Positions 21,231-45,866 of a DNA stretch of 64,000 nt are shown here, piece by piece (within the stretch, counting starts at the first letter, position 1; every line of letters begins with the position of its first letter). The notes beneath the pieces were generated by a model, which saw only the letters and a program-made list of their open reading frames with translations, did not search any database and was not told the origin of the DNA. The translations under genes and the position numbers were made by a program. This DNA comes from Candidatus Hydrothermia bacterium (GTDB lineage Bacteria; Hydrothermota; Hydrothermia; UBA1063), in the NCBI GenBank assembly GCA_049719805.1, contig JBNARF010000002.1:275495-339494 (forward strand), written 5' to 3'.

Positions 21231-21250
21231 TAGGTGTAAGGTGATAAAAA

Positions 21251-23050
21251 ATGTTTAAGACAAGTGGACCAGATTTCAAAAAAATTAAGCTCGAAGCCCA
21301 AAAGCTCATTGGGCAGGGTAAATATCAGGAAGCGTTAAATAAGTTAATAGAACTAAGCAAGCAGATCAGCGACCCAGAAGTTTACAATTCTATTGGCGAC
21401 CTCTATATCAGGTTCCAGAATAATGAGCAAGCCCTTCAATATCTCGAAAAAGCATACAAAATCTACAGAGAGCAGGATTTCAGAGAGATAGCTATTTCTG
21501 TGGCTAAGAAAATTCTTCGTATCGAAAAGGATAGGCATGATATTTACATTGATTTGGTTGAAATGGAAATGGAGAACGGTAATGTGGATAAAGCCCTTGA
21601 TTGGGCATTGGAGTTTGTAAAGCTACCTAACCCTGATCCTAGCTATGTGGGTAAGCTTTTTAGATTATTAAATGATATAGCTAATGAAATTCAGGAGAAT
21701 ACAGAACAGGCGACAAAATTCGAGAGACTCTTCATTAAATTGCAAGAGCTTGCGGAGCAGCTCTCTTTAGCTACCCTTGAGTCAGGAATTGAAATTGCGG
21801 ATGCAAAGGAATTTTTTGATAAAGGAGATTTTGAAGAATACGGTGGATTTTTTGATGCGGGTCACCCAGCTGAAGAAGCGAAGATTAAGAAAACCACCAG
21901 AAAGAAGGAAGAGCAAGAACCTGTTGAAAAGATAGAATTTTTTGAACAAGAAGAGGAAGAGAAAAGTTTTATAACTGCTTCTGGATTTTCCAATTTTCTT
22001 GAAGTGGAGAAATCTGATAATATTGAAAAAACCGTTCTGGAAGAGAAACCTACATCTTCTCATAAGTCAGAAGAAAGTGTGAAATTCGAGATTTCTGAGA
22101 AAACTGAGTTTGTAGAAGAAACTGAAGAAAAATTGGATTTGTTACCCCCTGAATCCAAGAGCGTCTCGGATAAGAGGCCGCCATCTGAGCAGTTTAAAAC
22201 AGTTTTAGAGGAAGAGCTTCCAGAGGAAATCGAGGCAGAACAAAAGGTATGGGAATCATTGACATCAAAAAAAATCACCGAACAGAAGCCGGTTCCTGAA
22301 GTAACAAGCAGTAAAGAATCTTCAGCTGAAGAGGAGGAACCTGAAAAACTCAGGGTGGCTTTTGACGAGTATGTGAAACTGAAAGAAGAGGAGAAAAAAG
22401 TCACTTTTGATGAGGTTGTAAGCGAGAAATTTAAGAGTGAATCAAAGGAAGAACCGAAACTGGAGCAAAAACCGACTGAGGGGGGAGTTCTCGAAAAAGT
22501 TGTAAAAGAGTCAACAACTGAGAAATTCTCCAAGGAGTTTAAGTCTTCCGTTTTTCAGGAAAAAGAAGCAGCACCCGCTGTAGTGCAGAAACCTAGAGAA
22601 TTTAGTGAAGCTATGTCAGATTTACTAAAGATTATAAGAGATTTCAAAGAAGATCTTGTTGGTTTAGAGACGTGGCCTTACTCTTCCGATTCTCCCTTTG
22701 AAGTTGCAAAAGAATATTACGAAATGAAGCTCTATCAGCCAGCAGTCGAAGAATTCCAGAAGCTTCTAGGAGACCCCAGATACAGGCTTCAATCAATGAC
22801 TTATTTAGGAAAGATATTCTATGAAAGGGGTGAGTTAGATTTTGCCGAGGCAATACTCAGGAAGGCTATCGAAGAAGCTGGATATATGGAGAAGGAATCC
22901 ATTGAGGCTTACTATTATCTTGCCCTAACCCTTGAGGCGCTTAAGCGTTTTATGGAAGCAAAAGAATTATATTTGAGGGTGTATATATTCGATTCAAGTT
23001 TTAGGGATGTTGCTGCAAAAGTAATGACATTAAGGAGTAAAGCACTATGA
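21251..23050 (+). CDS. Hypothetical protein: TPR-like helical termini flanking a long acidic/Lys-rich low-complexity region
   Basis: 599 aa; TPR-like N- and C-terminal segments, central ~300 aa rich in E/K/S/T; stop overlaps the next gene's start (ATGA). Confidence 0.45.
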   Translation: MFKTSGPDFKKIKLEAQKLIGQGKYQEALNKLIELSKQISDPEVYNSIGDLYIRFQNNEQALQYLEKAYKIYREQDFREIAISVAKKILRIEKDRHDIYIDLVEMEMENGNVDKALDWALEFVKLPNPDPSYVGKLFRLLNDIANEIQENTEQATKFERLFIKLQELAEQLSLATLESGIEIADAKEFFDKGDFEEYGGFFDAGHPAEEAKIKKTTRKKEEQEPVEKIEFFEQEEEEKSFITASGFSNFLEVEKSDNIEKTVLEEKPTSSHKSEESVKFEISEKTEFVEETEEKLDLLPPESKSVSDKRPPSEQFKTVLEEELPEEIEAEQKVWESLTSKKITEQKPVPEVTSSKESSAEEEEPEKLRVAFDEYVKLKEEEKKVTFDEVVSEKFKSESKEEPKLEQKPTEGGVLEKVVKESTTEKFSKEFKSSVFQEKEAAPAVVQKPREFSEAMSDLLKIIRDFKEDLVGLETWPYSSDSPFEVAKEYYEMKLYQPAVEEFQKLLGDPRYRLQSMTYLGKIFYERGELDFAEAILRKAIEEAGYMEKESIEAYYYLALTLEALKRFMEAKELYLRVYIFDSSFRDVAAKVMTLRSKAL

Positions 23051-24288
23051 TGAAGAAGGATTTAAAAGTTGAAGAAAAACCTCAAGGTAAGGTTACCTTC
23101 GTGGAGCTTCTTGAAAAGAGCGGCATCATTTCCAAAGAGGCCATTAAAGCTGCCCTTGCTGAGCAATGGGAGAGAGGGGGAACTTTAGAAGAGATTCTCG
23201 TTGAAAAGGGATACTTAAACGAGGAACAATTTGTTAAATTTATACTTGATAAATTTCCTATGCTACATTATGTGAGCTTGAAAGATATAGATATTGATAC
23301 TGAAGCTGTTGAACATATCCCAGCCAGAATTGCTAAGAAGTACTTACTGATCCCGGTTAGAAAGAAGGGGAAATCCTTAGCTGTGACCATGGCAAATCCC
23401 TTAAATAAAGAAATGCTCATCGAACTGAAAAACGTTACAGATTTGAAAATTAGACCATTTGTTTCAAAGATTTCGGAGATAAAGGAAGCCATTGCTAAGT
23501 ATTACGGAGAGATTGGAGAAGCAGAGGAAATTCCAGAACCTTTCACTGCAGATAAAGTTAAGAAAGAGATTGGAGTCCTGATAGCAAAGGATAAAACCTT
23601 TGAAAATTTCGTGGTCGGGGAAACTAATAAGCATGCCTATTTGCTTTGCGCAGATATTGCAAAAACTCGAGGAGTTGGAGAGAAGCGGCTTTTCATATGG
23701 GGGCCAGAAGGTACGGGGAAAACTCATCTTCTTCAAGCTATTGCGAACTACCTTTTAGAGAATGAAGCTCTAAGGAGATTCATATACATTGATGCTATAA
23801 AGTTTGTTACAACCCTGAAGGGTTTTAAGTCAGAGCGCGAGGTGGATCGGTATTTAAAAATTCTTACAGATCTTGATTTACTTCTCTTTGATGACTTAGA
23901 CTTTCTAATAGGTAAGGATTATGCTCAAGAGGCTTTATTTTCAGTGCTTTCTGAATTAAGAATGACCGATAAACAAGTGGTAATATCCTCATCATATCCG
24001 ATGAAGGATATGCCTACTTTGAGCGTAAAAGTAAAATCTTTAATTTCTGAATTCCTTGTAGTTGGAATGGATGAGCCCTCCGTGGAGCTTAAAAGGGACA
24101 TTGTAAAAAGATTTTTGCAGGAAGAATCACTTCCCTCTGGTGTAGTTGAGTTTCTTGTAAAGAAGCCTGGTTTAACAGTTAAAAAGATTGAATCTATTGT
24201 TCGCACATTGCTCACTTACAAGAGGATAGGAGAGAAAATTGATGAAAATCTTTTAAATAAGGTGGTTTCAGGGATTATTGAAAGTTAA
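23047..24288 (+). CDS. Fusion protein: N-terminal GspE-N (T2SSE_N/MshEN-like) domain + DnaA/Hda-like AAA+ ATPase domain, no DnaA domain IV
   Basis: 413 aa; residues ~15-155 match the GspE/PilB N-terminal domain pattern; residues ~180-400 match DnaA domain III: FVVGETNKHAY, Walker A WGPEGTGKTHLL, Walker B LLLFDDLDFL. Confidence 0.6.
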   Translation: MMKKDLKVEEKPQGKVTFVELLEKSGIISKEAIKAALAEQWERGGTLEEILVEKGYLNEEQFVKFILDKFPMLHYVSLKDIDIDTEAVEHIPARIAKKYLLIPVRKKGKSLAVTMANPLNKEMLIELKNVTDLKIRPFVSKISEIKEAIAKYYGEIGEAEEIPEPFTADKVKKEIGVLIAKDKTFENFVVGETNKHAYLLCADIAKTRGVGEKRLFIWGPEGTGKTHLLQAIANYLLENEALRRFIYIDAIKFVTTLKGFKSEREVDRYLKILTDLDLLLFDDLDFLIGKDYAQEALFSVLSELRMTDKQVVISSSYPMKDMPTLSVKVKSLISEFLVVGMDEPSVELKRDIVKRFLQEESLPSGVVEFLVKKPGLTVKKIESIVRTLLTYKRIGEKIDENLLNKVVSGIIES

Positions 24289-24302
24289 AAGGGGGTTTTA
24301 AA

Positions 24303-25922
24303 ATGGCTTTGTTAGGTCAACTGGGTTTGGGAGCTAAGGGCAAAACGAAAGGGAGCATAGTAGCCCTTGATATAGGTTCAAAATATGTAAAAGCTGCGTT
24401 ATTTGAGAGAAGGAAGAACGAGTTAGTGTTTAGGGGACTAGCTGTGGAAAAGGTCCCACCCGATGTGATCCTGGGTAAAGATATAATCGACCGGCAGGTT
24501 CTGGTAGATAAGATAAGGGATGCTTACTCCAAGCTTGGCACTGAAGTTAGAGATGTGGTGGTGAACGTAGCCGGTGGTGAGGTGAAAACTAAGGCCTTCG
24601 TTATACCTGACCTAAAGAAAAAAGAAAAGATAGCGGAGGCAGTGGACTGGAAGATAAAGGATGAGTTGCACGTGGATCCTACCGAGATAGTCAGGGATTA
24701 CGAACTTCTTGGAAAAAGCGAAGTGAGTGAGTCTCTGGATATGCTTGTGGGTACTGCCAAGTTGAGTGTGGTTTATGATATCATGGATATTGTGAGGGCT
24801 GCAAGACTTGAGCCTATAATGGTTACAACCGATCTCCTGGCCCTTTGGAGAGTTATTGAGGCCCTCGATTTAAAAGACCTTCCTGGAGATAACGTATTTT
24901 TCCATCTGGGTTACGAAGTGGGACTCCTAATTCATGTTAAAGATGGCAAGATCCAACAGATGATCGAAGTCCCAGCGGGTTTAAAATCATATGTGGATAA
25001 CTTATCCAGATTCTTTGACCTAAGAGTAGAAGAGGCCGAAGAAATTGTTATAAATGGCCCTACTTCCGGTATTGATAAAGTTTCTTTTGATGAGACTGTT
25101 GATTCGCTCCATGAGAGGTTTCTTTCGCCTGAAAAATATATACCTTTACTTGGTGAGCCAGGTGTTAAATTTAATTTATACATCTCTGGTGGTGGAAGTA
25201 AATTATACGGTGTAAGTGCTTTTGTTAAGAATAAGTATGGTGTCGATCTTAAATTCATAGATGTCTCAACCTTGTTTGCAGTTGAAGAACCTGTAAAGGG
25301 TATCAAAGATTATTTAAACTTACTAACTATAGTAATTGGTGATGCACTTCATTATTTCAGGAAAGGGCACAAGATAAACTTAATGCCTCAAGAAGCAGGG
25401 ATGGAAGCAGTAGCGGTTGAGGGTGAGGTTTCTTTATTACCTCATGTGGTGGGGGCACTCTCAATATGGCTTGTAATTGTCATTGTAATTGCTGTGCTGT
25501 CCATCGGAACCTCAAGGAGGATTTCAGGGCTTAAGAATCAAATAGCCAGGTTACAGGCTGAAGAGGTGGAACTTCAGAGAAAAGCTGACGAAATCAGGGG
25601 ATTTAAACAAGAAATTGAAGACGCCAGGCGAAAATTGGATCTTATTCAGCAGCTTCAAATGGGTAGAACGGTTTATGTAAGACTTCTCGATGAAATAAAC
25701 AGGGTTCTTCCCTCCGGGTGCTGGCTCGAGTCTGTAAGAAAAAGTGGTAGTTATCTTAATGTTTCTGGAGGAGCCCTTTCAAATATTAGAATATCTCAAT
25801 TTATGTCTAATCTCAAAAAGTCAGATGTAGTTGATTCTGTATACCTCCAGTCCATTGAAGTCTCTGGGGGTAGTCAACAAGAAAGATATGCAAGGTTTGA
25901 AATTAATGTTAAACTGAAATAA
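24303..25922 (+). CDS. pilM: Type IV pilus assembly protein PilM fused to PilN-like TM/coiled-coil/periplasmic region
   Basis: 539 aa; actin-like PilM N-terminus (IVALDIGSKYVKAA), then TM helix (ALSIWLVIVIVIAVLSIG), coiled coil and periplasmic domain as in PilN. Confidence 0.65.
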   Translation: MALLGQLGLGAKGKTKGSIVALDIGSKYVKAALFERRKNELVFRGLAVEKVPPDVILGKDIIDRQVLVDKIRDAYSKLGTEVRDVVVNVAGGEVKTKAFVIPDLKKKEKIAEAVDWKIKDELHVDPTEIVRDYELLGKSEVSESLDMLVGTAKLSVVYDIMDIVRAARLEPIMVTTDLLALWRVIEALDLKDLPGDNVFFHLGYEVGLLIHVKDGKIQQMIEVPAGLKSYVDNLSRFFDLRVEEAEEIVINGPTSGIDKVSFDETVDSLHERFLSPEKYIPLLGEPGVKFNLYISGGGSKLYGVSAFVKNKYGVDLKFIDVSTLFAVEEPVKGIKDYLNLLTIVIGDALHYFRKGHKINLMPQEAGMEAVAVEGEVSLLPHVVGALSIWLVIVIVIAVLSIGTSRRISGLKNQIARLQAEEVELQRKADEIRGFKQEIEDARRKLDLIQQLQMGRTVYVRLLDEINRVLPSGCWLESVRKSGSYLNVSGGALSNIRISQFMSNLKKSDVVDSVYLQSIEVSGGSQQERYARFEINVKLK

Positions 25923-25935
25923 AGGAGGTTTAATT

Positions 25936-26385
25936 ATGAAGAGGTATTTTTACCTTATAATTGCAGTAGTCCTTGGTCTTGTGCTTTCATCCTGTGAAAA
26001 GGTGGATAAAGACGCTACACTGACAGGTCGGGTAGGGTATGCCATTGCGTATATCGATACGGTTCATCAGGAAACCACCTTTGTTTTTCAAAATGCAGCG
26101 GGTGCAAGGGTTTATTTAATGGGTGATGATGCTTCACCTAATCCTTATACAGGTCCGGTACTTGAAACCACTACTGATTCCACCGGAACTTATCAGTTTG
26201 TCGTAAATGCTGTGACTGAGCCCAGTACCTCTTTTATCCCTACTAACAATTTTGGGATTAAGATTCAGGTGTTCTACTTTGATAATATAATTGGCCCAGC
26301 CTATGGAGAACTTAGCGGATATCACTTTACGCCCGGGAAAGACGCCACACTTCCAATAATATATCTTAAGCGGCAAACTCAGTAG
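25936..26385 (+). CDS. Small lipoprotein, beta-sandwich-like (carboxypeptidase-regulatory-like); unknown function
   Basis: 149 aa; signal peptide with lipobox LVLSSC; TGTYQF-type motif; AGGAGG RBS; sits between pilMN and pilO. Confidence 0.5.
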   Translation: MKRYFYLIIAVVLGLVLSSCEKVDKDATLTGRVGYAIAYIDTVHQETTFVFQNAAGARVYLMGDDASPNPYTGPVLETTTDSTGTYQFVVNAVTEPSTSFIPTNNFGIKIQVFYFDNIIGPAYGELSGYHFTPGKDATLPIIYLKRQTQ

Positions 26386-26394
26386 GAGTGAAAA

Positions 26395-26985
26395 ATGGAA
26401 AAATTAAAATCTCCGGCAGTAATATGGCTTTTAGGAGTAATTATATACGTATTGACCTTTATGTTCCTCTGGAATTCCATGTATGCCTCCAAATCCAGGG
26501 AACTCAAGACAGTAGAAGCAAAATATAAGGAGCAATACTCTAGAGTTCAGAATCTTCGTGAATTTGTAAAGGATTATGATAGAATAATAAGAGAAAAGGA
26601 CTCTTTGCTTGCCCTGTGGGAGGAGACTCAGAGGTTTTTGCCTCAGGAAGAAAATATGGACACATGGCTTTCTCAGATTACTGGTATGGCCATTAGTTCA
26701 GGGGTTCAAATATACAGTTTTAAGCCACAGTCACCCAGACAGCAGGAATTATATCGAGAGTATCCCATTGTGATGAAGGTAAGGGGTGGCTTCCATGAGC
26801 TTGGTACATTTATAAGCTTTATAGCCAACTCAGAGAGGATAATGAGTGTGGAGAATCTTCAACTACAACGTGTATCAGGACAAGAAATAGAGAGTGGACA
26901 AACGGTTGATGCTGAATTGACGGTTATATGTTATGTTTATAGTCCAGTGCAGGGGGCCGGAAAACCATCGGGAGGTTCACGATGA
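26395..26985 (+). CDS. pilO: Type IV pilus assembly protein PilO-like
   Basis: 196 aa; N-terminal TM helix, coiled coil, periplasmic domain; position between pilMN and pilP/pilQ. Confidence 0.55.
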   Translation: MEKLKSPAVIWLLGVIIYVLTFMFLWNSMYASKSRELKTVEAKYKEQYSRVQNLREFVKDYDRIIREKDSLLALWEETQRFLPQEENMDTWLSQITGMAISSGVQIYSFKPQSPRQQELYREYPIVMKVRGGFHELGTFISFIANSERIMSVENLQLQRVSGQEIESGQTVDAELTVICYVYSPVQGAGKPSGGSR

Positions 26986-27770
26986 GAAAAATTGTATTTT
27001 TTAATTTTTTATTTATTACATTATTGCTTAGCACTTTGCGAGCCCAGAATATGATAACTTCTTATTCTGTTCAAGAATCCGATGAAGGAGTTAGCATTAT
27101 TCTCGAGTTCTCTGAAGGGGTACCTCAGTATAGAGATTTTACCCTTGCAAATCCTCCCAGGATAGTGGTAGATTTGATTAACGTGGGGTATTCCTTAGGG
27201 GGAAAGCTTTTCGTAGTGGGAAAAGGTGGAGTGGAGCGAATAAGAGGAGCTCAGTACCAGAGAGAGCCGGAACTTGTTGCAAGAATTGTTCTTGATGTAG
27301 ATGAGTTTAGAAGCTACTCCATAGTAACATCGGAGAAATCCCTTATAATAAAAGTAGGTGGTATATCCAGCGTACCCTATTCCTCTTCTGCGCCAGGCGA
27401 AGCTGCTCCAGCACCTACCGAGAAAACCACTACAGTAAAAACTGAAGAAAAACAATACAAATTGGAAGTTGGGGAGAAGTACTTCTATTCTTCAAGGGGT
27501 AAAAAAGACCCCTTTAAGCCAGAAGCATTTGGTGAAGAGGAAGAACTTTTAAATGTTAGCGAGGCAAAACTCCTTGGGATTATAAAAAGCGATGAAGGAA
27601 ATGTAGCCCTTCTTCAGGATAGAAGGGGAGTAGGCTACGTTTTGAAAGAAGGAGACAGGGTCAGAAACGGTCGGGTAGTAAAGATTGAATCCGACCGTGT
27701 AGTTTTCGCTATTGTAGATTTTGGTTTTACAAGAAGGGTTGAATTAAAATTGGAGGAAGAAAATAAATAA
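26982..27770 (+). CDS. Secreted AMIN-domain protein with C-terminal PilP-like domain
   Basis: 262 aa; signal peptide; AMIN-like motifs (PPRIVVDLINV, ARIVLDVDE); Pro/Ala/Thr linker; C-terminal KDPFKP...LLGII...VKIESDRVVF resembles PilP. Confidence 0.5.
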   Translation: MRKIVFFNFLFITLLLSTLRAQNMITSYSVQESDEGVSIILEFSEGVPQYRDFTLANPPRIVVDLINVGYSLGGKLFVVGKGGVERIRGAQYQREPELVARIVLDVDEFRSYSIVTSEKSLIIKVGGISSVPYSSSAPGEAAPAPTEKTTTVKTEEKQYKLEVGEKYFYSSRGKKDPFKPEAFGEEEELLNVSEAKLLGIIKSDEGNVALLQDRRGVGYVLKEGDRVRNGRVVKIESDRVVFAIVDFGFTRRVELKLEEENK

Positions 27771-27784
27771 AAGGAGGTTTAGTA

Positions 27785-28969
27785 ATGGGGATTTTTAGAA
27801 AAGCGCTTCTTATCCTGCTTACGGTGAGTGTAATATCTGCTCAAGAAGCCCGAATCACCATGAGTGTAGAACAGGCAGATATAAAAACCGTATTGAGAGC
27901 CTTTGCAGAAGTTGGGAGAGTTAATATAATTACAACACCGTCCGTAACTCAGAAAGTTACTTTTAACATAAAAGATGTACCCTGGAGACTGGCTCTAAAA
28001 TCCTTGCTTGATGCCTATGGGCTTGCAATGATTGAAAGTGAGGGACTCATCACCATTATGACTCAACAGGAGTTTGCAAACTTAAAAACAGCAGCGGACC
28101 TGGATATTAAAGTACTTAAAGTACGTTATGCCGATGCCCGAAAAGTTGCAGAGGTCTTAAAGTCGCAGTTATCTCCAAGAGGAGATATTAAGTTGGATGA
28201 AAGCTCTAACGCCCTTATTGTCACGGATCTCAGAGTAAACCTGTACAGAGTGGAGGATCTCCTCACCCAGGTAGATAAGCCTTACCCCCAGGTTATGATA
28301 AAAGGAAGAATAGTGGAAGTGGACTACAATGAGTCAAGAAGGCTTGGGTCAGAGCTTAAAGCAATTAGGTTTGGAAATCCCGGTTTCGAAGCCTCACCCT
28401 ATACTGCTGGAGGACTTGAACCTGAAAACGCAACTTATTTAACGGTGAATTATCTCGGACCTAATGCTGCAAGAATTGAGGCAGCTATTGATGCTCTTGA
28501 GGGCAAATCAAAAGCCAATACCATTTCTGAGCCTAAAATCATGGTCCTTGACAATGAAAAGGCATCTATATATTCGAAGATAAGGGTGCCGGTTATTTCA
28601 AGGGATATGGCCGGAAATACTGTCGTTCAGTTTGAAGAAACCGGTATAAGCCTTGAAGTAACACCTCATATTATTCCAGATGGCAAAGTGGTTCTACACA
28701 TTAAAACAGAGACTGGGGACCTCACCGGATATTCTGCTGCTGGTCAACCAATAACCTCCAAGAGAGGAGCAGAGACGAAGGTTACAGTACCTGATGGAGA
28801 AACTGTATTAATTGGTGGTGTTATCATTGACAAGGATAAGAAAGCTAATTCAGGCCTTCCTTTGCTTTTGAGAATCCCCATTTTAGGCCAGATTTTTGGT
28901 CGTCATTCTGTAGAAAAAAGTAAGGCTGAGATTTTGATATTCTTAACACCCACTGTGGTGAGAGAATGA
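27785..28969 (+). CDS. pilQ: Type IV pilus secretin PilQ (minimal form)
   Basis: 394 aa; signal peptide, secretin N-domains, C-terminal secretin signature (GETVLIGGVI...PLLLRIPILGQIFG...ILIFLTPTVV). Confidence 0.85.
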   Translation: MGIFRKALLILLTVSVISAQEARITMSVEQADIKTVLRAFAEVGRVNIITTPSVTQKVTFNIKDVPWRLALKSLLDAYGLAMIESEGLITIMTQQEFANLKTAADLDIKVLKVRYADARKVAEVLKSQLSPRGDIKLDESSNALIVTDLRVNLYRVEDLLTQVDKPYPQVMIKGRIVEVDYNESRRLGSELKAIRFGNPGFEASPYTAGGLEPENATYLTVNYLGPNAARIEAAIDALEGKSKANTISEPKIMVLDNEKASIYSKIRVPVISRDMAGNTVVQFEETGISLEVTPHIIPDGKVVLHIKTETGDLTGYSAAGQPITSKRGAETKVTVPDGETVLIGGVIIDKDKKANSGLPLLLRIPILGQIFGRHSVEKSKAEILIFLTPTVVRE

Positions 28970-29526
28970 AAATAAGATTTTTCAATCACAAGAAGGGCCT
29001 CACATTAGTTGAGGTCCTTCTTGTGATTTTTATTATCAGTATCTTAGTAGCAATACCTTTCTGGGGGGGGACTCAATATATAGCCCGCAACAGGCTAAGA
29101 AGTGAAGCGGTTAAGATTAAATCCTTTACCGAAAACGAGAGAACCAATGCTATGGCCATGACCACAAGACGTGCCATAGAGTTCAATGGGTGGGATGTAA
29201 CAATTTACGTGGAAGATCTATCGCGCCCTTTGCCTAATCTGGATTCTATTGTTGCCACTTACCCCAATTACTTTAGCTCTAAAATAAATTTCGGCGGGCT
29301 TCCGGGTGCGACGGCTCTAAGGGGAGGTTCCATTGACTCCGATGGTGTAATGTTTGGGAGTTCTCAGAATAATAACAGGTTGGTCTTCACAGCCTTTGGA
29401 CTTGTTGAGAATCCCGGAGAGCTATATATAAATGATGGACGAAATCTAATGTGTATCGCTGTTAACGGATTTGGACAAGTTAGAATATATAGATGGACAG
29501 GGGGAAGCTGGAATGAAGTTAAATAA
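28966..29526 (+). CDS. Prepilin-type minor pilin/pseudopilin (FimU/GspH-like)
   Basis: 186 aa; class III signal peptide KKG/LTLVEVLLVIFIISILVAI with Glu at +5. Confidence 0.65.
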   Translation: MKIRFFNHKKGLTLVEVLLVIFIISILVAIPFWGGTQYIARNRLRSEAVKIKSFTENERTNAMAMTTRRAIEFNGWDVTIYVEDLSRPLPNLDSIVATYPNYFSSKINFGGLPGATALRGGSIDSDGVMFGSSQNNNRLVFTAFGLVENPGELYINDGRNLMCIAVNGFGQVRIYRWTGGSWNEVK

Positions 29527-29935
29527 AAAAGGTTTTTCTCTTATTGAGCTTCTCGTGGCTCTTTCTATACTGGCTATTGGACTCCTCGGTATAATTCCCC
29601 TTGCTATCACCACTATACGCCTCAATACCTATCAGAATCAAATGCTTAATGCTAAGTATTTAGCAGAGAGGCAGGCGGAATTTTTAAGAAGTATTACGTT
29701 TACTGCACCTGAACTCGCAAATGATAACGACAACAATGACCTATACGATACCGCAAACCCTGACCACATTCTTGCTACAACCATTGAAGGGATCACATAT
29801 AATGTGATGTGGAACATTGTGGATGATTCTGCCGGGACTAGAACTATTAATATAATAGTTCAGTGGGTTACGCCACGAACTGGAGAAACAAAAAACTATA
29901 ATATTACCCTCGTAAGGAGTAGCTATGAAATTTAG
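29513..29935 (+). CDS. Prepilin-type minor pilin (PilV-like)
   Basis: Prepilin motif KKG/FSLIELLVALSILAIGLLG; chosen start ATG 29513 (MKLNKKGF...), ORF track starts at 29471; overlaps upstream gene by 14 nt. Confidence 0.65.
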   Translation: MKLNKKGFSLIELLVALSILAIGLLGIIPLAITTIRLNTYQNQMLNAKYLAERQAEFLRSITFTAPELANDNDNNDLYDTANPDHILATTIEGITYNVMWNIVDDSAGTRTINIIVQWVTPRTGETKNYNITLVRSSYEI

Positions 29936-30827
29936 AAGAGCTATAACACTCTTGGAACTTATTGTGGCTTTGGGCATATTATCTGTGCTTCTTACTAGTG
30001 TTTTTATAGTATATAGAAATCAAATGAGGACAGCCACCACTCAGCAAAGTATTTCCGTTCTCCAGACTGATATTCAGCAGGCTTTTAACATTCAAAAGTG
30101 GGATATGCTGATGAGCGGGTATGGTGTTAGTGCAAATGTTGCTCCCATATGGAGCATAAATAAGACAAATGCCCCTGATTCTTTAATATTACGGAGCACG
30201 GGTTTTCTTATTGGTGGTACCACCCGCTGGAGTTACGTTATGGATGCAATGACGGGGACTGAACTTATCGTTGGGCGCTGGAATGACGAAAGGGAAGATA
30301 TTCATGTTGGTGACGTGATTGTAATAATGACTGATAGAAAGGGTCAGATAGCTCCACCTGTTTCTGTCACAGCTCGCGAGGCGATGACTTATAACAATCA
30401 GGATGCGTACAGGCTGACCTTAAGTGGGAATGTTCAAACGGCTCAGGGTAACTTTGTCTTTGTGGTTCCTGGAGGTCAATTTCAAACTGTAGTTTATTGG
30501 GTTAGAAATGACACGCTGTTTCGGGGGAATGAGCCCTTTTTAACGGGAGTTGAAGATTTTCAGGTATCTCACTGGGTGGACTTAAATGGCAATGGGATAG
30601 AGGATGTGGGGGAGAGGGTTATGAATCCTTCTGGTGTAAGTAATTTTACGGGTTTCTTAAGGTCTACAAGGGTTAGTCTTGTGCTTTTAGGTCCTGTGGA
30701 TAGAGATTATACATTCCCTGATAATCAAATTACTGTGGAAGATCATACCTATACAATTACCGGGTCTGCGAGGAATAGAAGGCGCAGGTTTTATACCATA
30801 GAAGTAAAAGCGAGGAATATAAGATGA
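29925..30827 (+). CDS. Prepilin-type minor pilin (PilW-like), atypical Ala at -1
   Basis: 300 aa; N-terminus MKFRRA/ITLLELIVALGILSVLL with Glu at +5 but Ala instead of Gly before the cleavage site. Confidence 0.55.
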   Translation: MKFRRAITLLELIVALGILSVLLTSVFIVYRNQMRTATTQQSISVLQTDIQQAFNIQKWDMLMSGYGVSANVAPIWSINKTNAPDSLILRSTGFLIGGTTRWSYVMDAMTGTELIVGRWNDEREDIHVGDVIVIMTDRKGQIAPPVSVTAREAMTYNNQDAYRLTLSGNVQTAQGNFVFVVPGGQFQTVVYWVRNDTLFRGNEPFLTGVEDFQVSHWVDLNGNGIEDVGERVMNPSGVSNFTGFLRSTRVSLVLLGPVDRDYTFPDNQITVEDHTYTITGSARNRRRRFYTIEVKARNIR

Positions 30828-31273
30828 AAAAAGGAGTTGCTTTAATAACGGTGATTCTCGTAGTTGCGTTTCTTGTGGTTTTAGGTGGAATAACAGCCTA
30901 CATGGTCCAGAGAAGTTTGAGAATTACCGGGACCTTCAGAAGGGCTCTATCCACCTTTGAGGCTGCGGAAGGTGGTATTGAGATAGGTGTGAATGAGATA
31001 TGGTCTGCTTCAGAAGAAGGAAGATCACTGGGAACGATAACGAGGAACGTAGGACAAAGGTCAGTAACTGTAACACCATCTCGTCTTTTTGTGATGACGG
31101 AAAGGGGTGGCTCATTAGAGTTTGCTGCGGCATACGAAGGTGTTGGAAGGGGAGTAGGAGGGGGTGGTGCTGCAATATTTTATAGAATCTTATCTTTATC
31201 CCGCGGTGGACCTGAAGATAGGGTGGAACTTGAAGTTTTATATAGGAAAGTTGTAGGTATAATAGCACAATAA
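30824..31273 (+). CDS. PilX-like minor pilin / pilus assembly protein
   Basis: 149 aa; N-terminal hydrophobic helix (GVALITVILVVAFLVVLGGITAY) lacking Glu5, as in PilX. Confidence 0.5.
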   Translation: MKKGVALITVILVVAFLVVLGGITAYMVQRSLRITGTFRRALSTFEAAEGGIEIGVNEIWSASEEGRSLGTITRNVGQRSVTVTPSRLFVMTERGGSLEFAAAYEGVGRGVGGGGAAIFYRILSLSRGGPEDRVELEVLYRKVVGIIAQ

Positions 31274-31284
31274 AAGGAAAAGGG

Positions 31285-34200
31285 GTGATAATTATGTTTA
31301 AAAAAAGGTGGTTATTTGGTACATTAATGATTATAGTGGGGGCACTCATGGCTCAAACCACTGAGATGCCCTGCAACGTTCCGCCGTTTTTGGCGGAGAA
31401 AATTCCGCCGAATATCTTAGTTATTATGGACAATTCTGGTTCTATGGGTGAAATGGCATATAATGAGCCTTATAACCCTAACAAAAAATACTATGGCTAT
31501 TTTAATCCCGATGCAGTTTATCGTTATGACAACAATGAATGGGTTCCTGTAGATCAAAGTGCAAACTTTAATACCACCTGGCCTGGAAACCTCTTGAACT
31601 GGGCAATTATGTCACGTTTCAGTGTTTTAAAGAAAGTTCTTGTGGGTGGAAAGGCAACGGCACGAAGCCCCAGGGGATTTGCCCACACCCTGATTTGTGA
31701 GTCACGCAATTCCTGGGATAAATATTACACATATGGCGGAAGTAAATACCGTTTTACCGTTTCCGGTGGAAGTGCTGGATCTGCGAGTAGTATAGTAATA
31801 AGGAGATGGACAGGAAGGAATTGGGTGCAACTGCTTTCTGCAACTAATAAAGTTGCAATCGACTCAACCTTCTCCCGAGGTGTTATTCAGAAGCTTGGTG
31901 ATAAGGATATAGATGGCAGATGGGATGATGACACTCCGAGATTCTGGCTAATAATGTTTAATAGCAGAGGGAATAACAGTGAAATGGGGTCAGGTAGTAC
32001 AACCCCAGTAAATGTCAGCGGGGAACACGATGGCGGTCGTGTGGAGTCTTATTATCAGGATAACAATTCAATGAGTGATTTTGTTAATGCCATTCAGAAT
32101 GCCAAAGCAGAGACCTGGACCCCCCTCGCTGAATGTTTACTTGAGACATGCTGGTATTTTAGACAAGTTCCCACACCTCTTTTCTTCCCTAATGACTACG
32201 GGACGGACCGGCAATGGGATCCTATGGAGCCTAAGAGTGTATGGTGCCGAAAGTCTTTTGTGCTCTTTTTGACCGACGGCCAGGCAACGAGAGATAGAGA
32301 TCCCGTTTTGCATCAGCATATAGGTGATTACGATGGTGACGGAATGGAACCATCGTTTTATCAGGGTGTAGATGATCCACAGTTCAGCAGCCATTACCTT
32401 GATGATGTAGCCTTTTGGATGCATACCAACGATCTGAGACCTGATATCCCGGGGACCCAGAACCTCACCCTTTATGGTGTCTTTGTTTTTGGATATGGGC
32501 ACGATCTTTTAAAAGAAGCCTGTAAAGATGGCGGATTCATCGATTACAATGGTAACAATAGACCTGACCTTACGAGAGAGTGGGATCATAATGAAGACGG
32601 AGTTCCCGATACATATTTCGAGGCACAGGAGGGAGAGCAGATCGAAAAGGCTATTATGGATGCGATACTCTCTATTTTAGCGAGGGTAAGTTCAGCTACG
32701 GCTGCATCTGTGGTCACTCAGACCCAGAGAGGTGAAGGAACTATATATCAGGCCTTTTTCCAGCCCACTTACACTACGCCTCTGGGCGAGATAAAATGGC
32801 TTGGACAATTGGTGGGCTACTTTGTTGATAAAAATGGAAATATTAGAGAAGATAGCAATAATGATTTAAGACTCACTAGTGATGACCGTATTTTGAAATT
32901 TAAGACTGAAGGAATTGAAACCAGAGTTGAGAGATGGGCTGCCACTTCTGATGATAATCCCCTTTACAAGGTTGATGAAGTAGACCTCTGGGATGTTAAT
33001 TTCCTCTGGGATGCTGGCAAAAGATTACTGGAAAGAAGCGCTGACGAGCGGATTATAAAAGCAATAATTAAACAGAATAACACATTTGCTCTCATAGATT
33101 TCAAAACCAATAACAGGAGCCTTCTCAGCTCTTACATGGAAGGTTCTGATGCCTTCAAGGACTCTTTAATAAATTACATTAGAGGTGTTGATTATAATAA
33201 TCCCAGCTGGCGATCCAGGACATTTGAGCCGAATAAGGTCTGGAAACTTGGTGATATAGTCTACTCTACGCCGACTTTTGTTGGAAGACCGACGGAAAGG
33301 TATGATCTCATATATGATGATGTATCTTACAGGGAATTTTACAACCGGAAGAAGAACAGGCGAAACATAGTCCTTGTTGGCGCCAACGATGGAATGCTCC
33401 ATGCGTTTAATGCCGGTATTTTTGATACACTTGAAAGAAGGGTAGATGGAATGGGTAGGAGTTTGGGTGAAGAATTGTGGGCAGTTATTCCTATGAACCT
33501 CCTTCCCCATTTGAAATGGCTGAAGGATCAGCAATATTGCCATGTTTACTATGTTGACCTTAAACCAAAAGTTACAGACGTAAAGATATTTAGTGATGAT
33601 GAGGATCATCCTGAAGGCTGGGGTACTGTCGCCATCGTAGGAATGAGATTTGGAGGAACTCCAATATCCATATCCAGTGGCACGTATAGGTCTGCTTTCT
33701 TTGCTCTTGACATTTCTAACCCAGATAATCCCCGGGTGTTGTGGGAGTTTACAGATCCCAATCTTGGTTATACTATTTCCTATCCCTCTGTTTTGAAAGT
33801 TGTGGATCAGAACGGTGAAAAGTGGTTCGTTGTTTTTGGTTCTGGAACCACAACTACCCCCACAGGACACACTTCCAATCAAAATGCTTATTTCTATATC
33901 CTTGATCTTAAGACGGGAGCCCTTTTAAGAAAGATACAGATACCATATCCTTCAAATCAGACGCAAGGTGCGTTTTGTGGTAATCCCATCTCCGTGGACG
34001 TTAAGCTGGATTACAGTTGTGATATAATCTATTTACCTGTTACATATATTGAAAGATCAGGTAATACAAATATAGAAAAGGGTGCTCTTTACAGGATAGT
34101 AACTGGCAATAGTACAAATCCGCAAGCCTGGTCCCTCTCCATGGCGATAAGACTAGATAGGCCAGTAACCTCAGGGACTGCCGCTTCCATGGACGAATAT

Positions 34201-34857
34201 GGTAATTTATGGGTATTCTTTGGGAGCGGGAAGTACTTTACAGACCAGGATGAGATTGATTCAAGGACCAATTATCTTCTAGGATTTAAGGATCAGTACT
34301 GGAATGGTGGTTGGACAAGTGCTACCTCTCCAAGCTATGCCCTTTCAGATCTTCTCAATGCAACTAATATTAATGTAAGAGTTGACACTTCCACTGGCAG
34401 TGCCACTGTTGAAAACGTACAAGGCCTTCCAAATAATTTATCTTTCGAAGCCTTTGTGGATTCTGTTAATAGAAGATATAAGGGGTGGTATGTGGAGCTC
34501 CAGAGTGGTGAAAAGTCCCTTAATTTCCCATTAGTTCTTGGCGGTGCTGTATTTTTCACCACCTATAAGGTTATTGATGACCCTTGTGCTTTTGGTGGTC
34601 AGGGATGGCTCTATGTACTCTATTACAAGACTGGAACAGCATCTAAAAATGCGCCCCTGGGTTTACTACAGAACAATTACGCTGCCACCAAGGTTGAAGT
34701 ACAGGGTATGCCTGCTTCTCCTGCAGTTCACATAGGATCAAGGGATGAGGCAAGGGCGGTGGTTCAGACCTCAACTGGCGAGATTATTTCCATGCCCGTG
34801 GAACTTCCCTGGAGTCCGAAGAGCGGTGCAAGGGTCTGGAGACCCGCAAACTTTTAA
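31285..34857 (+). CDS. PilY1/PilC-like pilus tip adhesin with N-terminal vWA (MIDAS) domain
   Basis: 1190 aa; signal peptide; MIDAS motif VIMDNSGSM near the N-terminus; large C-terminal region consistent with a PilY1 beta-propeller; follows four minor pilin genes. Confidence 0.65.
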   Translation: MIIMFKKRWLFGTLMIIVGALMAQTTEMPCNVPPFLAEKIPPNILVIMDNSGSMGEMAYNEPYNPNKKYYGYFNPDAVYRYDNNEWVPVDQSANFNTTWPGNLLNWAIMSRFSVLKKVLVGGKATARSPRGFAHTLICESRNSWDKYYTYGGSKYRFTVSGGSAGSASSIVIRRWTGRNWVQLLSATNKVAIDSTFSRGVIQKLGDKDIDGRWDDDTPRFWLIMFNSRGNNSEMGSGSTTPVNVSGEHDGGRVESYYQDNNSMSDFVNAIQNAKAETWTPLAECLLETCWYFRQVPTPLFFPNDYGTDRQWDPMEPKSVWCRKSFVLFLTDGQATRDRDPVLHQHIGDYDGDGMEPSFYQGVDDPQFSSHYLDDVAFWMHTNDLRPDIPGTQNLTLYGVFVFGYGHDLLKEACKDGGFIDYNGNNRPDLTREWDHNEDGVPDTYFEAQEGEQIEKAIMDAILSILARVSSATAASVVTQTQRGEGTIYQAFFQPTYTTPLGEIKWLGQLVGYFVDKNGNIREDSNNDLRLTSDDRILKFKTEGIETRVERWAATSDDNPLYKVDEVDLWDVNFLWDAGKRLLERSADERIIKAIIKQNNTFALIDFKTNNRSLLSSYMEGSDAFKDSLINYIRGVDYNNPSWRSRTFEPNKVWKLGDIVYSTPTFVGRPTERYDLIYDDVSYREFYNRKKNRRNIVLVGANDGMLHAFNAGIFDTLERRVDGMGRSLGEELWAVIPMNLLPHLKWLKDQQYCHVYYVDLKPKVTDVKIFSDDEDHPEGWGTVAIVGMRFGGTPISISSGTYRSAFFALDISNPDNPRVLWEFTDPNLGYTISYPSVLKVVDQNGEKWFVVFGSGTTTTPTGHTSNQNAYFYILDLKTGALLRKIQIPYPSNQTQGAFCGNPISVDVKLDYSCDIIYLPVTYIERSGNTNIEKGALYRIVTGNSTNPQAWSLSMAIRLDRPVTSGTAASMDEYGNLWVFFGSGKYFTDQDEIDSRTNYLLGFKDQYWNGGWTSATSPSYALSDLLNATNINVRVDTSTGSATVENVQGLPNNLSFEAFVDSVNRRYKGWYVELQSGEKSLNFPLVLGGAVFFTTYKVIDDPCAFGGQGWLYVLYYKTGTASKNAPLGLLQNNYAATKVEVQGMPASPAVHIGSRDEARAVVQTSTGEIISMPVELPWSPKSGARVWRPANF

Positions 34858-34870
34858 AAGGGGGTAGAGC

Positions 34871-35227
34871 ATGTTTGCCTTTATAATTTTAATTTCCATC
34901 TTGACTCAATCAGGGATTCAGGTGACCCAGGGGGTGATTAGTACCCCCAGGGTCCTGCAAAAAGAATATCTAACTGATGAAGAGATGAGGGCCCTTCAAA
35001 ATACCATAGGCGGAGTTTTTATGGGGGTTTCTGATGATTCAAACTACATTTTCGTGAACGAAAAATACATAAAAATCGATAAGAGAACATTCAATTTCAA
35101 GAATTTGCCTGCTGTTGGCGAGGATGTCTTTATACGATTGGAAGAACGTGGGAAGGATAAAATCGGAGTATTCTGCTCTAATAACCTGGATGATGCTGTT
35201 TATTACAAAAAGGGACTTTTTAAATGA
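34871..35227 (+). CDS. Hypothetical small secreted/membrane-anchored protein
   Basis: 118 aa; N-terminal hydrophobic segment; no recognised motif. Confidence 0.3.
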   Translation: MFAFIILISILTQSGIQVTQGVISTPRVLQKEYLTDEEMRALQNTIGGVFMGVSDDSNYIFVNEKYIKIDKRTFNFKNLPAVGEDVFIRLEERGKDKIGVFCSNNLDDAVYYKKGLFK

Positions 35228-35778
35228 AGGGGCTTCTAATTCTTCTCATCATTCTTGTAATTTTGATTGTGGTTTTCATTTCCATCTACAATAGCCTTGT
35301 AAGATTGAGGGTCCTTGTTAAAAATGCTTTTGCTGATATTGACGTGCAGCTTAAGAAAAGACATGATCTTGTGCCTAATCTTGTGGAGACCGTAAAAGGC
35401 TACGCTGCCCACGAGAGAACCACACTGGAAAACGTAATTAAAGCAAGGCAGATGGCAGTTTCAGCTTCAACTCCCGATGACAAAATGAAATCCGAAAATA
35501 TGCTCACACAAGCTTTGAGACAGCTCTTTGCAGTCGTTGAAAATTATCCCAATCTAAAGGCTAATGAGAATTTTATGGCGCTGCAACAGGAGCTTTCCAA
35601 AATAGAAGAGTCTATTCAGAATGCACGCAGGTACTACAACGCCGTAGTCCGGGATTACAATACACGAATTATGGTTTTTCCGTCCAATATTGTTGCCAGT
35701 ATGTTTGGTTTCAGACCGGAGTCATTTTTCGAGATCGGAGAAGAGACAGAAAGAGAAGCACCCCAGGTTAAGTTCTGA
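35224..35778 (+). CDS. LemA-family membrane protein
   Basis: 184 aa; N-terminal TM helix then LemA pattern (YNSLVRLRVLVKNAFADIDVQLKKRHDLVPNLVETVKGYA). Confidence 0.8.
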   Translation: MKGLLILLIILVILIVVFISIYNSLVRLRVLVKNAFADIDVQLKKRHDLVPNLVETVKGYAAHERTTLENVIKARQMAVSASTPDDKMKSENMLTQALRQLFAVVENYPNLKANENFMALQQELSKIEESIQNARRYYNAVVRDYNTRIMVFPSNIVASMFGFRPESFFEIGEETEREAPQVKF

Positions 35779-35797
35779 ATAGGGATGAATCAAAGGA

Positions 35798-35834
35798 TGT
35801 GCGCGCCCCTTCGGGGCGCGCACAATTTTTATTT
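35798..35834 (+). terminator. Rho-independent terminator (possibly bidirectional)
   Basis: Perfect GC-rich hairpin TGTGCGCGCCCC-TTC-GGGGCGCGCACA (35798..35824) followed by AATTTTTATTT; lies between convergent LemA (+) and DUF192 (-) genes. Confidence 0.7.
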
Positions 35835-36260
35835 ACTTATCCACGGAAATATTGCGGTATCTCCGATATCAATATTGTTCCGCTTAAACCAGCCACTGTT
35901 TACCTCAAGGGCGTATTTACAGGGGGTTTTTGATGTAATTGTAGATTCATCAAAGGCTTTCATGTCGTAGATTTCCCTGATAACGCCATCTTCACTTATG
36001 TATGCTATGGAGAGTTCTATTGGGGTATTTTTCATCCAGAAGGAAAGAATTTGCGATTCCGGGAAAACAAAGAGCATACCCTCGGAATCGGGCAAATAAC
36101 TTGTATACATGAGCCCCCTTTCCCATTCCTGGGGACTCGTAGCCAATCTCACATAAAGTGTCTTATCCTTAACCTTGATCTCTTTTAAAAAACCTGTGGA
36201 TTTTATTTTTTCTTTACCACAAGCTAAGAAAGCGAGGAGTACAAGGCTATATTTTTTCAC
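35829..36260 (-). CDS. DUF192-family protein (secreted/lipoprotein)
   Basis: 143 aa; N-terminal signal peptide ([10 protein letters not shown]); DUF192-like core ([21 protein letters not shown]...[10 protein letters not shown]). Confidence 0.55.
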
Positions 36261-36618
36261 GTATTCTGGCAGCTTTACCCTTACGCTCTCTGATGTAGTA
36301 GATCCTGGCTCTTCTTACTCTACCCCTTCTGAGCACCTCTATTTTTTCTATTACAGGAGAGTGAACGGGAAATATCTTTTCGATCCCGATCCCCTGAGTA
36401 ACTTTTCTTACGGTAAAAGTTTCGGAAAGACCACTACCTCTTCTTCTTATAACCACACCTTCAAATGGTTGTACTCTAACTTTTTCCACAAGCTGTTTTG
36501 TCTTTGGGTCTTCTTTTAATTCTTTTATTTTAACGTGCACCCTTATGGTATCGCCTGGGCCAAAGTCGGGAATATCATTTCTCATAAATTCTTTTTCGAT
36601 TTCTCTTATGTCAACCAT
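36247..36618 (-). CDS. rplS: 50S ribosomal protein L19
   Basis: 123 aa; canonical L19 sequence ([17 protein letters not shown]...[16 protein letters not shown]). Confidence 0.95.
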
Positions 36619-45670: not shown

Positions 45671-45744
45671 GCCCCCGTAGCTCAGTAGGATAGAGCGGCG
45701 GTTTCCTAAACCGCAGGCCAGAGGTTCGAATCCTCTCGGGGGCA
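45671..45744 (+). tRNA. tRNA-Arg (anticodon CCT)
   Basis: Hand-folded cloverleaf: acceptor GCCCCCG/CGGGGGC, D-stem GCTC/GAGC, anticodon stem GCGGT/ACCGC with loop TTCCTAA, T-arm AGAGG-TTCGAAT-CCTCT, discriminator A; no encoded CCA. Confidence 0.9.
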
Positions 45745-45791: not shown

Positions 45792-45866
45792 AGGCCTGTA
45801 GCTCAATTCGGCTAGAGCGCTGGATTCCAAATCCAGTGGTTGGGGGTTCAAGTCCCTCCAGGCCTG
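45792..45866 (+). tRNA. tRNA-Trp (anticodon CCA)
   Basis: Hand-folded cloverleaf: acceptor AGGCCTG/CAGGCCT, D-stem GCTC/GAGC, anticodon stem CTGGA/TCCAG with loop TTCCAAA, T-arm GGGGG-TTCAAGT-CCCTC, discriminator G; no encoded CCA. Confidence 0.9.

Follow-up and report, generated by a model that had tools for sequence, protein, structure and literature searches.

The type IVa pilus (T4aP) machines of Pseudomonas aeruginosa and Myxococcus xanthus (pilMNOPQ; fimU-pilVWXY1E; 3JC8) are built from PilM, PilN, PilO, PilP, the secretin PilQ, four core minor pilins, and PilY1. The same parts are encoded on the forward strand of the 64,000-nucleotide stretch analysed here (contig JBNARF010000002.1, positions 275,495 to 339,494; hereafter the window), which comes from a Candidatus Hydrothermia bacterium with ~40% G+C. 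This lineage, candidate division WOR-3, is now placed in the class Caldifarciminia of the phylum Caldifarciminota. The locus very probably represents the envelope-spanning half of a functional T4aP machine in this WOR-3 bacterium. In itself, it is a member of a well-known pilus type. Its distinctive features are a PilM-PilN fusion, an AMIN domain carried by PilP, a lipoprotein, and a pair consisting of a tetratricopeptide repeat (TPR) protein and an ATPase, in which an MshEN domain is joined to domain III of DnaA (DnaA-III). This pair is the most significant of the four features, and the recruitment of a DnaA-derived AAA+ domain as a conserved component of a pilus operon is the main point of interest. 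The locus also adds a T4aP example from a barely cultured phylum and shows how such a machine has been rearranged, with PilM and PilN fused, the AMIN domain moved from PilQ to PilP, and a lipoprotein added.

Unlike in the Pseudomonas and Myxococcus systems, PilM and PilN form one protein, PilP rather than PilQ carries the AMIN domain and has a signal peptide instead of a lipobox, and an extra lipoprotein gene is inserted between pilMN and pilO. The alignment and minor-pilin genes share a single operon here instead of occupying two, and it is headed by the genes of the TPR protein and the DnaA-type ATPase. On the other hand, the Myxococcus PilP and PilQ chains are matched directly by the PilP and AMIN halves of the fusion found here. 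The alignment subcomplex would be formed by PilM-PilN, PilO, and PilP, and PilQ would form the outer-membrane secretin, with the peptidoglycan anchor (AMIN) sitting on PilP. The four minor pilins, in GspH/I/J/K order, together with a von Willebrand factor A (vWA)/beta-propeller PilY1, would make up the pilus-priming and tip complex. The genes of these components are the following (a slash marks the cleavage position):

24303–25922, forward strand: fused PilM-PilN, 539 aa (Pfam PilM_2 at aa 22–251, PilN at aa 460–538)
25936–26385, forward strand: lipoprotein, 149 aa, with lipobox LSS/C (from the sequence; predicted all-beta)
26395–26985, forward strand: PilO, 196 aa, with an N-terminal transmembrane anchor (Pfam PilO, 88 bits)
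26982–27770, forward strand: AMIN-PilP fusion, 262 aa, with a signal peptide (Pfam AMIN at aa 31–124)
27785–28969, forward strand: PilQ secretin, short form, 394 aa (Pfam Secretin, 151 bits; Secretin_N; N0/STN)
28966–29526, forward strand: minor pilin 1, GspH/FimU/PpdA-like, 186 aa, HKKG/LTLVEV (N_methyl, motif scan)
29513–29935, forward strand: minor pilin 2, PilV/GspI-like, 140 aa, NKKG/FSLIEL (N_methyl, 36 bits)
29925–30827, forward strand: minor pilin 3, PilW/GspJ-like, 300 aa (weak Pfam PilW at aa 199–298 and N_methyl)
30824–31273, forward strand: minor pilin 4, PilX/GspK-like, 149 aa, without Glu5 (weak Pfam PilX_N, weak NCBIfam GspK)
31285–34857, forward strand: PilY1-like tip protein, 1190 aa from a GTG start (Pfam T4P_PilY1, 74 bits, aa 655–1011)

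A preliminary description of the locus had identified it as a type IV pilus rather than a type II secretion system (T2SS) or Tad system, and profile searches kept this identity. The PilM-PilN-PilO-PilP subcomplex, a PilQ-type secretin, and the core minor pilins with PilY1 are all present, and PilQ is the best secretin model. The Tad/type IVc markers RcpA, TadZ, CpaF, and Flp pilin have no Pfam or NCBIfam match on any operon protein, and the same profiles find no T2SS-, Tad-, or mannose-sensitive haemagglutinin (MSHA)-specific protein among the operon products. Almost all of the earlier domain assignments were upheld by the Pfam and NCBIfam searches as well.

In the PilM-PilN fusion, which is present in all related loci and scores 82 bits against TIGR01175 pilM, a cytoplasmic actin-like PilM is followed by one transmembrane helix (about aa 385–410) and a periplasmic PilN. 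The PilP half of AMIN-PilP has no Pfam match, and its sole confirmation comes from a profile of nine orthologues, in which positions 161–241 match Myxococcus PilP (3jc8_Pa, E 2.5e-7), while positions 18–145 match the AMIN domains of PilQ (3jc8_Qa, 66 bits). PilQ itself consists of a signal peptide, N0, a single N1, and the secretin domain. It had been called minimal, which its 394 aa bear out; the protein is short because the peptidoglycan-binding AMIN domain has moved to PilP in this lineage. Among the NCBIfam secretin models, PilQ scores highest (253 bits), followed by GspD (207 bits), HofQ (175 bits), and MshL (103 bits). The PilQ score is slightly under the curated cutoff of TIGR02515 (284 bits), probably because the AMIN region is missing. 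In its length (about 400 aa) and N0-N1-secretin layout, the protein also resembles the E. coli HofQ and Haemophilus ComE secretins, and the alignment with HofQ is full-length. However, its HofQ score is below that of PilQ and far under the HofQ cutoff, and a full PilMNOP set and PilY1 are encoded alongside, unlike for HofQ/ComE.

Three of the four minor pilins contain the N_methyl motif and the fourth contains PilX_N. Minor pilin 1 has weak, N-terminal-only NCBIfam matches to PRK10506, ComGD, and GspH, and minor pilin 2 matches TIGR02523 PilV (35.5 bits) and GspI. For the orthologue of minor pilin 3 in locus L025, a WOR-3 scaffold of 63 kb, both PilW and N_methyl are recorded. The PilY1-like protein, called by NCBI as 1187 aa from an ATG at 31294, has a signal peptide, an N-terminal vWA domain with the metal ion-dependent adhesion site motif DNSGS, and a C-terminal beta-propeller. 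PilY1_homolog_dom is on record for it, and it weakly matches the Neisseria PilC tip adhesin. Orthologues of the lipoprotein occupy the same slot in L002–L004, L006–L010, and L025. A PDB sequence search with the lipoprotein gave no relative, a faint CarboxypepD_reg signal was seen in two of six orthologues, and the single-sequence AlphaFold2 (AF2) model has a pLDDT of 42 and is unusable.

The two genes that open the operon encode the TPR-ATPase pair:

21251–23050, forward strand: acidic TPR protein, 599 aa (Pfam TPR_12/16/19 at aa 15–74 and 493–576)
23047–24288, forward strand: MshEN + DnaA-domain-III AAA+ ATPase, 413 aa (MshEN, 60 bits, aa 74–156; Bac_DnaA, 117 bits, aa 181–337)

The TPR protein is cytoplasmic, lacks a signal peptide, and is strongly acidic (pI 4.76, 22% Asp + Glu). 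Its repeats are found only at both ends, and the ~300 aa in the middle are variable, acidic, and of low complexity. In the distant loci L005, L007–L010, and L012, conservation of this protein is limited to the N- and C-terminal parts. The stop codon of the TPR gene overlaps the start codon of the ATPase gene (ATGA, gap of −4), and the two genes are predicted to be translationally coupled.

The ATPase had been noted as a GspE_N-DnaA-like protein, and both MshEN and Bac_DnaA are confirmed, although the unusual nature of the protein went unrecognised. It is composed of a PilB-type GSPII/MshEN domain (aa ~17–156), a disordered linker (157–174), and DnaA domain III with its lid (175–411), and has no DnaA domain I or IV. 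NCBIfam models for the PilB N-terminus and DnaA match positions 3–143 and 100–339, respectively. PDB profiles match the N-terminal domains of PilF/PilB/MshE (5htl, 60 bits) and DnaA domain III (2z4r, 158 bits). The AF2 model (pLDDT 80.5) gives a Foldseek TM score of 0.85 to DnaA domain III (8bv3, 2z4r). As in DnaA domain III and Hda (2Z4R, 8BV3, 3BOS), an initiator-clade AAA+ fold with a lid is combined with a Walker A (GxGKTHL), a Walker B (LLxDD), and a basic sensor-II residue. In the whole window clade, Walker A (GxGKTH) and Walker B (LLFDD) are both invariant and the basic sensor-II residue is retained. Unlike in DnaA/Hda, the SDRPP box is altered, and in 33 of 33 WOR-3 members Leu, Phe, or Ile takes the place of the arginine finger of box VII (Arg in RLxSRF), which is kept in L011 and in several distant members. 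The context is likewise a pilus operon and not dnaA-dnaN.

At its N-terminus, the ATPase has the same fold as the N-domains of MshE (5HTL), PilB, and Thermus PilF, and also their tandem motif scaffold of 53 residues. In those proteins the domain is followed by a PilT/GspE-class core, whereas here it is joined to the DnaA-type AAA+ domain. No T2SSE core (PF00437) is present, and real PilBs align with the protein only over the N-terminal domain (tblastn, BLASTP). Since the T2SSE core is absent, the ATPase is not the motor. The possibility that the DnaA-like ATPase replaces PilB has been ruled out, as a genuine PilB co-occurs with it in L011, L013, and L025.

The fusion is restricted in its distribution. 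A homology search found it in about 35 clusters, all WOR-3, after which the scores fall from 325 to 121 bits, and the matches below that drop are ordinary DnaA proteins with domain IV (PF08299). Among 1.84 billion representatives, an exhaustive profile search gave roughly 25–30 clusters matching end-to-end, in addition to four giant proteins with MshEN and two DnaA-type modules. In these giants (P0341, 1876 aa; P0342, 1990 aa; P0363; P0370), the MshEN domain is N-terminal with perfect cyclic di-GMP (c-di-GMP) motifs, and the two AAA+ modules are separated by long spacers. An alignment of the ATPase family, used as a query, brought up eleven loci from GTDB species genomes, all of which are WOR-3/Hydrothermota metagenome-assembled genomes (MAGs). 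In every recovered locus, from 100% down to 31% identity, the ATPase gene is located between the TPR gene and pilMN. In L013 (19526–20908), this position is taken by a homologue of 460 aa (31% identity, E 4e-39), whose AAA+ half is too diverged for a precomputed Bac_DnaA match and which is extended at its C-terminus by an additional domain of about 100 aa. A literature search returned nothing relevant on a DnaA-type ATPase in pili or on an MshEN-DnaA fusion.

The MshEN domain raises the possibility that the protein is a c-di-GMP receptor that switches pilus assembly, as for MshE and PilB/PilF, and for the window protein this appears rather unlikely. The MshEN/GSPII fold and the tandem 24-residue motif scaffold are present (PF05157, 60 bits; 5htl, 60 bits), and the protein passes the NCBIfam model NF053729 ‘c-di-GMP_motif’ (42.7 bits against a cutoff of 38 bits). 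The hydrophobic, G10, and Q24 positions of the motif are all present and invariant across the family, and members of the wider family (P0341, P0342, P0402, P0468) carry a textbook RLG...Q. However, positions 1 and 3, which are Arg and Gly in RLG, deviate in both half-sites, which read TFV and TLE in the window ATPase. Throughout the window clade, both half-sites have Thr or Ser at position 1 and Val, Ala, or Glu at position 3, and these residues also fail the relaxed MshEN motif [RKPN]hG (Wang et al. 2016, PMC5013675). In the GSPII-A domain of Thermus PilF, c-di-GMP is no longer bound when position 1 is Ser, and the affinity falls 10–30-fold when position 3 is Ala (PMC12002112). The non-binding GSPII-A (9G1W) therefore deviates at the same positions as the window ATPase, in which both half-sites are affected and not just one. 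Canonical c-di-GMP binding by the window ATPase is thus more likely lost than kept, judging from the motifs.

Across the wider family, the motif states form an evolutionary gradient, in which P0341, P0342, and P0402 (and L011 for the AAA+ half) keep RLG...Q twice and/or the arginine finger and sensor II. Since these wider-family members have textbook RLG...Q motifs, the ancestor of the fusion family was probably a c-di-GMP binder. The ATPase of L011 (7977–9215), the most distant relative, shows near-canonical DnaA motifs (YNPLFIYGGVGLGKTHLL, SDRPP, LTSRF, SNVRTL). Two genes 5' of it, a stand-alone MshEN protein of 143 aa with Arg at motif position 1 is encoded (L011, 7005–7436).

The N-terminal domain of GspE docks on the PilM-like protein GspL. 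By homology, the MshEN-fold domain would dock the ATPase at the cytoplasmic PilM platform, where the DnaA-derived module, acting with the TPR partner, would serve as an ATP-bound/ADP-bound switch or as a scaffold. Such a switch would tune assembly or the access of PilB, and would not power the pilus. Most likely, the ATPase would act at the PilM platform as a nucleotide-dependent adaptor or regulator. The loss of the trans-acting arginine finger and of the c-di-GMP-contacting Arg and Gly makes it improbable that the window-clade protein works as an oligomeric hydrolase in the manner of DnaA or as a canonical c-di-GMP receptor.

A more specific proposal can be made tentatively, and we regard it as possible but not favoured. 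The TPR protein and the ATPase would constitute a previously undescribed T4aP nucleotide-switch module, in which an initiator-clade AAA+ domain was captured from replication, is tethered at PilM through its PilB-like domain, and gates motor access or pilus initiation. The module would be c-di-GMP-responsive in ancestral and other members with RLG and the arginine finger, and c-di-GMP-independent in this WOR-3 clade. In a bolder variant, the module might contribute to the uptake of DNA via a competence pilus, given the HofQ-like secretin and the binding of single-stranded DNA by DnaA domain III. If the ATPase does regulate assembly, it would define a new class of T4P accessory ATPase. The family would then offer a natural series of stepwise losses of c-di-GMP binding and of arginine-finger catalysis, which would help to understand the repurposing of MshEN domains and initiator-clade ATPases.

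Several points weigh against a complete pilus machine with a c-di-GMP-independent regulator. The NF053729 model is passed by the ATPase, and the docking at PilM and the switch role, which we infer, rest on gene order and domain homology. The subtype calls of all four minor pilins rest on weak, mostly N-terminal matches. Finally, PilB, PilC, PilD, and the major pilin of the window's own genome are not among the matches listed in two PilB-seeded searches (best 120 each), contig look-ups, and cluster listings.

The last of these points concerns the motor and the fibre. The preliminary description had reported no PilB/PilT, PilC, prepilin peptidase, or major pilin in the 64-kb window, which Pfam, a motif scan, and tblastn all confirm. 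Among the open reading frames (ORFs) of at least 110 aa outside the rpoBC/ribosomal block at 46–59 kb, the non-operon genes with Pfam matches are housekeeping genes, and no motor (T2SSE) or platform (T2SSF) gene is among them. A six-frame prepilin-motif scan of the window returned only two operon pilins. With the PilB, PilT, PilC, PilD, pilins, PilS, and PilR of relatives as queries, tblastn over all frames of the whole window, including the rpoBC block, found no such gene, and the only match was that of the PilB N-terminal domain to the MshEN domain at 23092–23556. The 10 kb to the left of the window likewise contain housekeeping genes only and no motor genes.

The further claim, that the motor and fibre subunit must be encoded elsewhere, is borne out in relatives, where these genes are adjacent to the module; in the window's own genome they have not been located among the matches listed. 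In L025, the genes of a histidine kinase, PilC, PilT, and PilB are divergent from PilD, the TPR protein, the ATPase, and PilMN, so that an identical module faces pilB-pilT-pilC. In L011, one contiguous block reads PilB-PilT-PilC-pilin-PilD-TPR-MshEN-...-ATPase-PilMN-PilO-AMIN-PilP-PilQ-prepilin, and the order in L013 is PilB-T-C-S-R-pilin-PilD-TPR-ATPase homologue-PilMN. Because these three loci pair the module with motor genes, it is taken to belong to a complete T4aP machine. We infer that PilB, PilT, PilC, PilD, and the major pilin of this genome lie at one or more other loci, which is well supported and unproven for this genome. Motor and pilin genes at separate loci would resemble the Pseudomonas arrangement. 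T4aP systems are commonly split over several loci, for example in P. aeruginosa, and the absence of the motor from the window is therefore unremarkable.

The two PilB searches used the PilB of L011 and then the Hydrothermota PilB P0162 as queries. The contigs of the PilB matches P0175, P0164, P0136, and P0170 are all from other assemblies, and in the PilB cluster listings no member was seen on the known contigs of this species. The failure to locate the PilB of this genome reflects the scope of the searches (best 120 matches) and is not a negative result. Many WOR-3/Hydrothermae MAGs carry an annotated PilB. The P0158 PilB cluster (90% identity) includes, beside WOR-3/Hydrothermae, almost identical sequences assigned to a ‘Thermococci archaeon’ and a ‘Deltaproteobacteria bacterium’, all from contigs of about 3.3 kb, as well as Microcoleus fragments of 50 aa. 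This mixture is probably a product of mis-binned contigs and clustering artefacts in public MAGs.

These absences could also mean that the operon is a decaying or orphan remnant in a clade that lost PilB, PilC, PilD, and the major pilin and makes no pilus, which we consider very unlikely. The PilB of the species is missing from the top 120 matches of both searches and no PilB match lies on its known contigs, and the pilD gene found immediately 5' of the TPR gene in more distant loci has been lost from the operon in this clade. However, the non-detection of PilB is a matter of search scope, and none of the 12 pilus genes is disrupted, either in the window or in the recovered portions of four syntenic genomes. 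The order of the TPR protein, ATPase, PilMN, lipoprotein, PilO, AMIN-PilP, PilQ, four prepilins, and PilY1 is kept down to 34–45% identity, and the four closest relatives also share the upstream housekeeping block. In the window clade, synonymous substitutions have reached saturation, and the dN/dS values that are computable are 0.08–0.18. The pilus genes also evolve more slowly than the neighbouring housekeeping gene, a putative murU-amgK: dN is 0.09–0.34 for the assembly and pilin genes and 0.29–0.39 for the TPR gene, compared to 0.39–0.55 for murU-amgK. The promoter is conserved, and so is the prepilin motif G/xTLxE of the relatives, including Glu5 and the cleavage site. By these substitution rates and motifs, the operon is judged to be under strong purifying selection, and functional rather than a remnant. 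Electron microscopy has revealed pili on isolate sy37, the sole WOR-3 bacterium in culture, for which no motility was seen (PMC12285271). This isolate (2.39 Mb) is distinct from the window organism, with a G+C content of 60.6% against about 40%.

Members of the ATPase family are annotated publicly as ‘DnaA/Hda family protein’ or ‘chromosomal replication initiator protein DnaA’, and the best sequence and fold matches of aa 175–411 are indeed DnaA domain III and Hda. It is nevertheless highly improbable that the protein is a replication regulator, an Hda/DnaA paralogue lying in a pilus operon by chance. Domain IV is absent along with domain I, the scores are far below cutoff for both TIGR00362 DnaA (160 against 344 bits) and TIGR03420 Hda (74 against 195 bits), and the arginine finger required by Hda and DnaA is lost; because of the missing domain IV, the sub-cutoff scores, and the lost finger, the ATPase is not considered a replication protein. 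The PilB-type N-terminal domain, the constant position between the TPR gene and pilMN, and the predicted translational coupling to the TPR gene also argue against a replication role. The DnaA/Hda annotation is misleading, and the DnaA label could distort the replication-gene inventories of these MAGs.

The products of the MSHA operon include MshN, a TPR protein, MshM, an AAA+ ATPase, and MshI, which resembles PilM/N. In Vibrio MshM/MshN and T2SS GspA(ExeA)/GspB, as in the window, an accessory AAA+ ATPase and a TPR or other partner accompany a true motor within a filament operon, which is an analogy only. MshM and ExeA belong to the AAA_22/ExeA family, ExeA is membrane-anchored with a peptidoglycan-binding domain, and neither has MshEN, whereas the window ATPase is of the DnaA clade and carries MshEN. 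That the system is a T2SS or MSHA-type pilus, with the TPR protein and ATPase as counterparts of MshN/MshM or GspA/ExeA, is suggested by this shared gene content and by weak matches of PilO to GspM, PilP to GspC, and the minor pilins to GspH/I/K, but it has only a slim chance of being correct and is already largely refuted by the profile scores: GspD and MshL (TIGR02519) score below PilQ and under their cutoffs of 351 and 250 bits, the PilY1 propeller and PilM/N are present, relatives have the genes of PilS/PilR and of PilT, the retraction ATPase, next to the module, and the window ATPase, which has neither a membrane anchor nor a peptidoglycan-binding domain, scores only 18.6 bits for AAA_22 (cutoff 27) and hence is no homologue of ExeA/MshM. 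The identification of the TPR protein with MshN and the ATPase with MshM was dropped on the same scores.

The remaining features of the transcription unit are listed below:

21187–21215, forward strand: operon promoter, TTGACA-17 nt-TATAAT, 36 nt 5' of the TPR start codon, within the 3' end of the putative murU-amgK
34871–35227, forward strand: ORF of 118 aa with a hydrophobic N-terminus (from the sequence)
35224–35778, forward strand: LemA-family membrane protein, 184 aa (Pfam LemA, 212 bits)
35798–35824, both strands: bidirectional intrinsic terminator, ending the operon and a convergent DUF192 gene

Fourteen co-directional, closely packed genes ending at LemA and a strong terminator had been reported, and all 14 forward-strand ORFs were recovered in place over 21251–35778. 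The spacing between them is −56 to +14 nt as first called. The start of the second prepilin is moved from an upstream TTG at 29471 to 29513 (MKLNKKG/FSLIEL, 140 aa), in agreement with the NCBI gene call, and as a result the −56 nt overlap shrinks to −14 nt. The promoter is the sole 12/12 match to the sigma-70 consensus within 18000–37000, and it is kept as CTTGACA[CT]-N17-TATAAT in L002, L003, L004, and L006 despite diverged flanks. The terminator stem has 12 bp, 10 of them G-C, and there are T-runs on either strand. With a lone conserved sigma-70 promoter and a strong terminator, the 14 genes are a single, well-delimited transcription unit. An Rfam scan gave no match inside the operon, and only two tRNAs elsewhere in the window.

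Directly after pilQ and just inside the first prepilin gene, a hairpin of 19 bp followed by a T-run is found (28984–29028, forward strand; about −39 kcal/mol for a 100-nt segment), which overlaps the codons of the prepilin signal peptide. This hairpin might act as an attenuator, limiting read-through of transcripts from the assembly genes to those of the minor pilins. A conserved attenuator has been ruled out, as the hairpin is not kept in six relatives (−10 to −22 kcal/mol). At the 3' end of the operon, the 118-aa ORF has no Pfam or NCBIfam match and is overlapped by the LemA gene by 4 nt. LemA is co-transcribed with this ORF and is probably not pilus-specific. A metagenome scan of the context downstream of pilY1 returned one distant locus, which is arranged differently.

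Directly 5' of the operon (18173–21230, forward strand) are the genes of NamZ, an exo-beta-N-acetylmuramidase, and of a 625-aa protein with nucleotidyltransferase and phosphotransferase (APH-type kinase) parts, which looks like a MurU-AmgK fusion. If so, the two would be a MurNAc salvage pair. This NamZ/murU-amgK block is syntenic in four relatives. Elsewhere in the window, the ORFs at 3224–4171 (forward strand, 315 aa) and 11445–12770 (reverse strand, 441 aa) have no Pfam match at E <= 0.001. The two tRNA genes (45671–45744 and 45792–45866, forward strand) lie between a thyX/maf block and short forward-strand ORFs 5' of rpoB/rpoC-sized ORFs.

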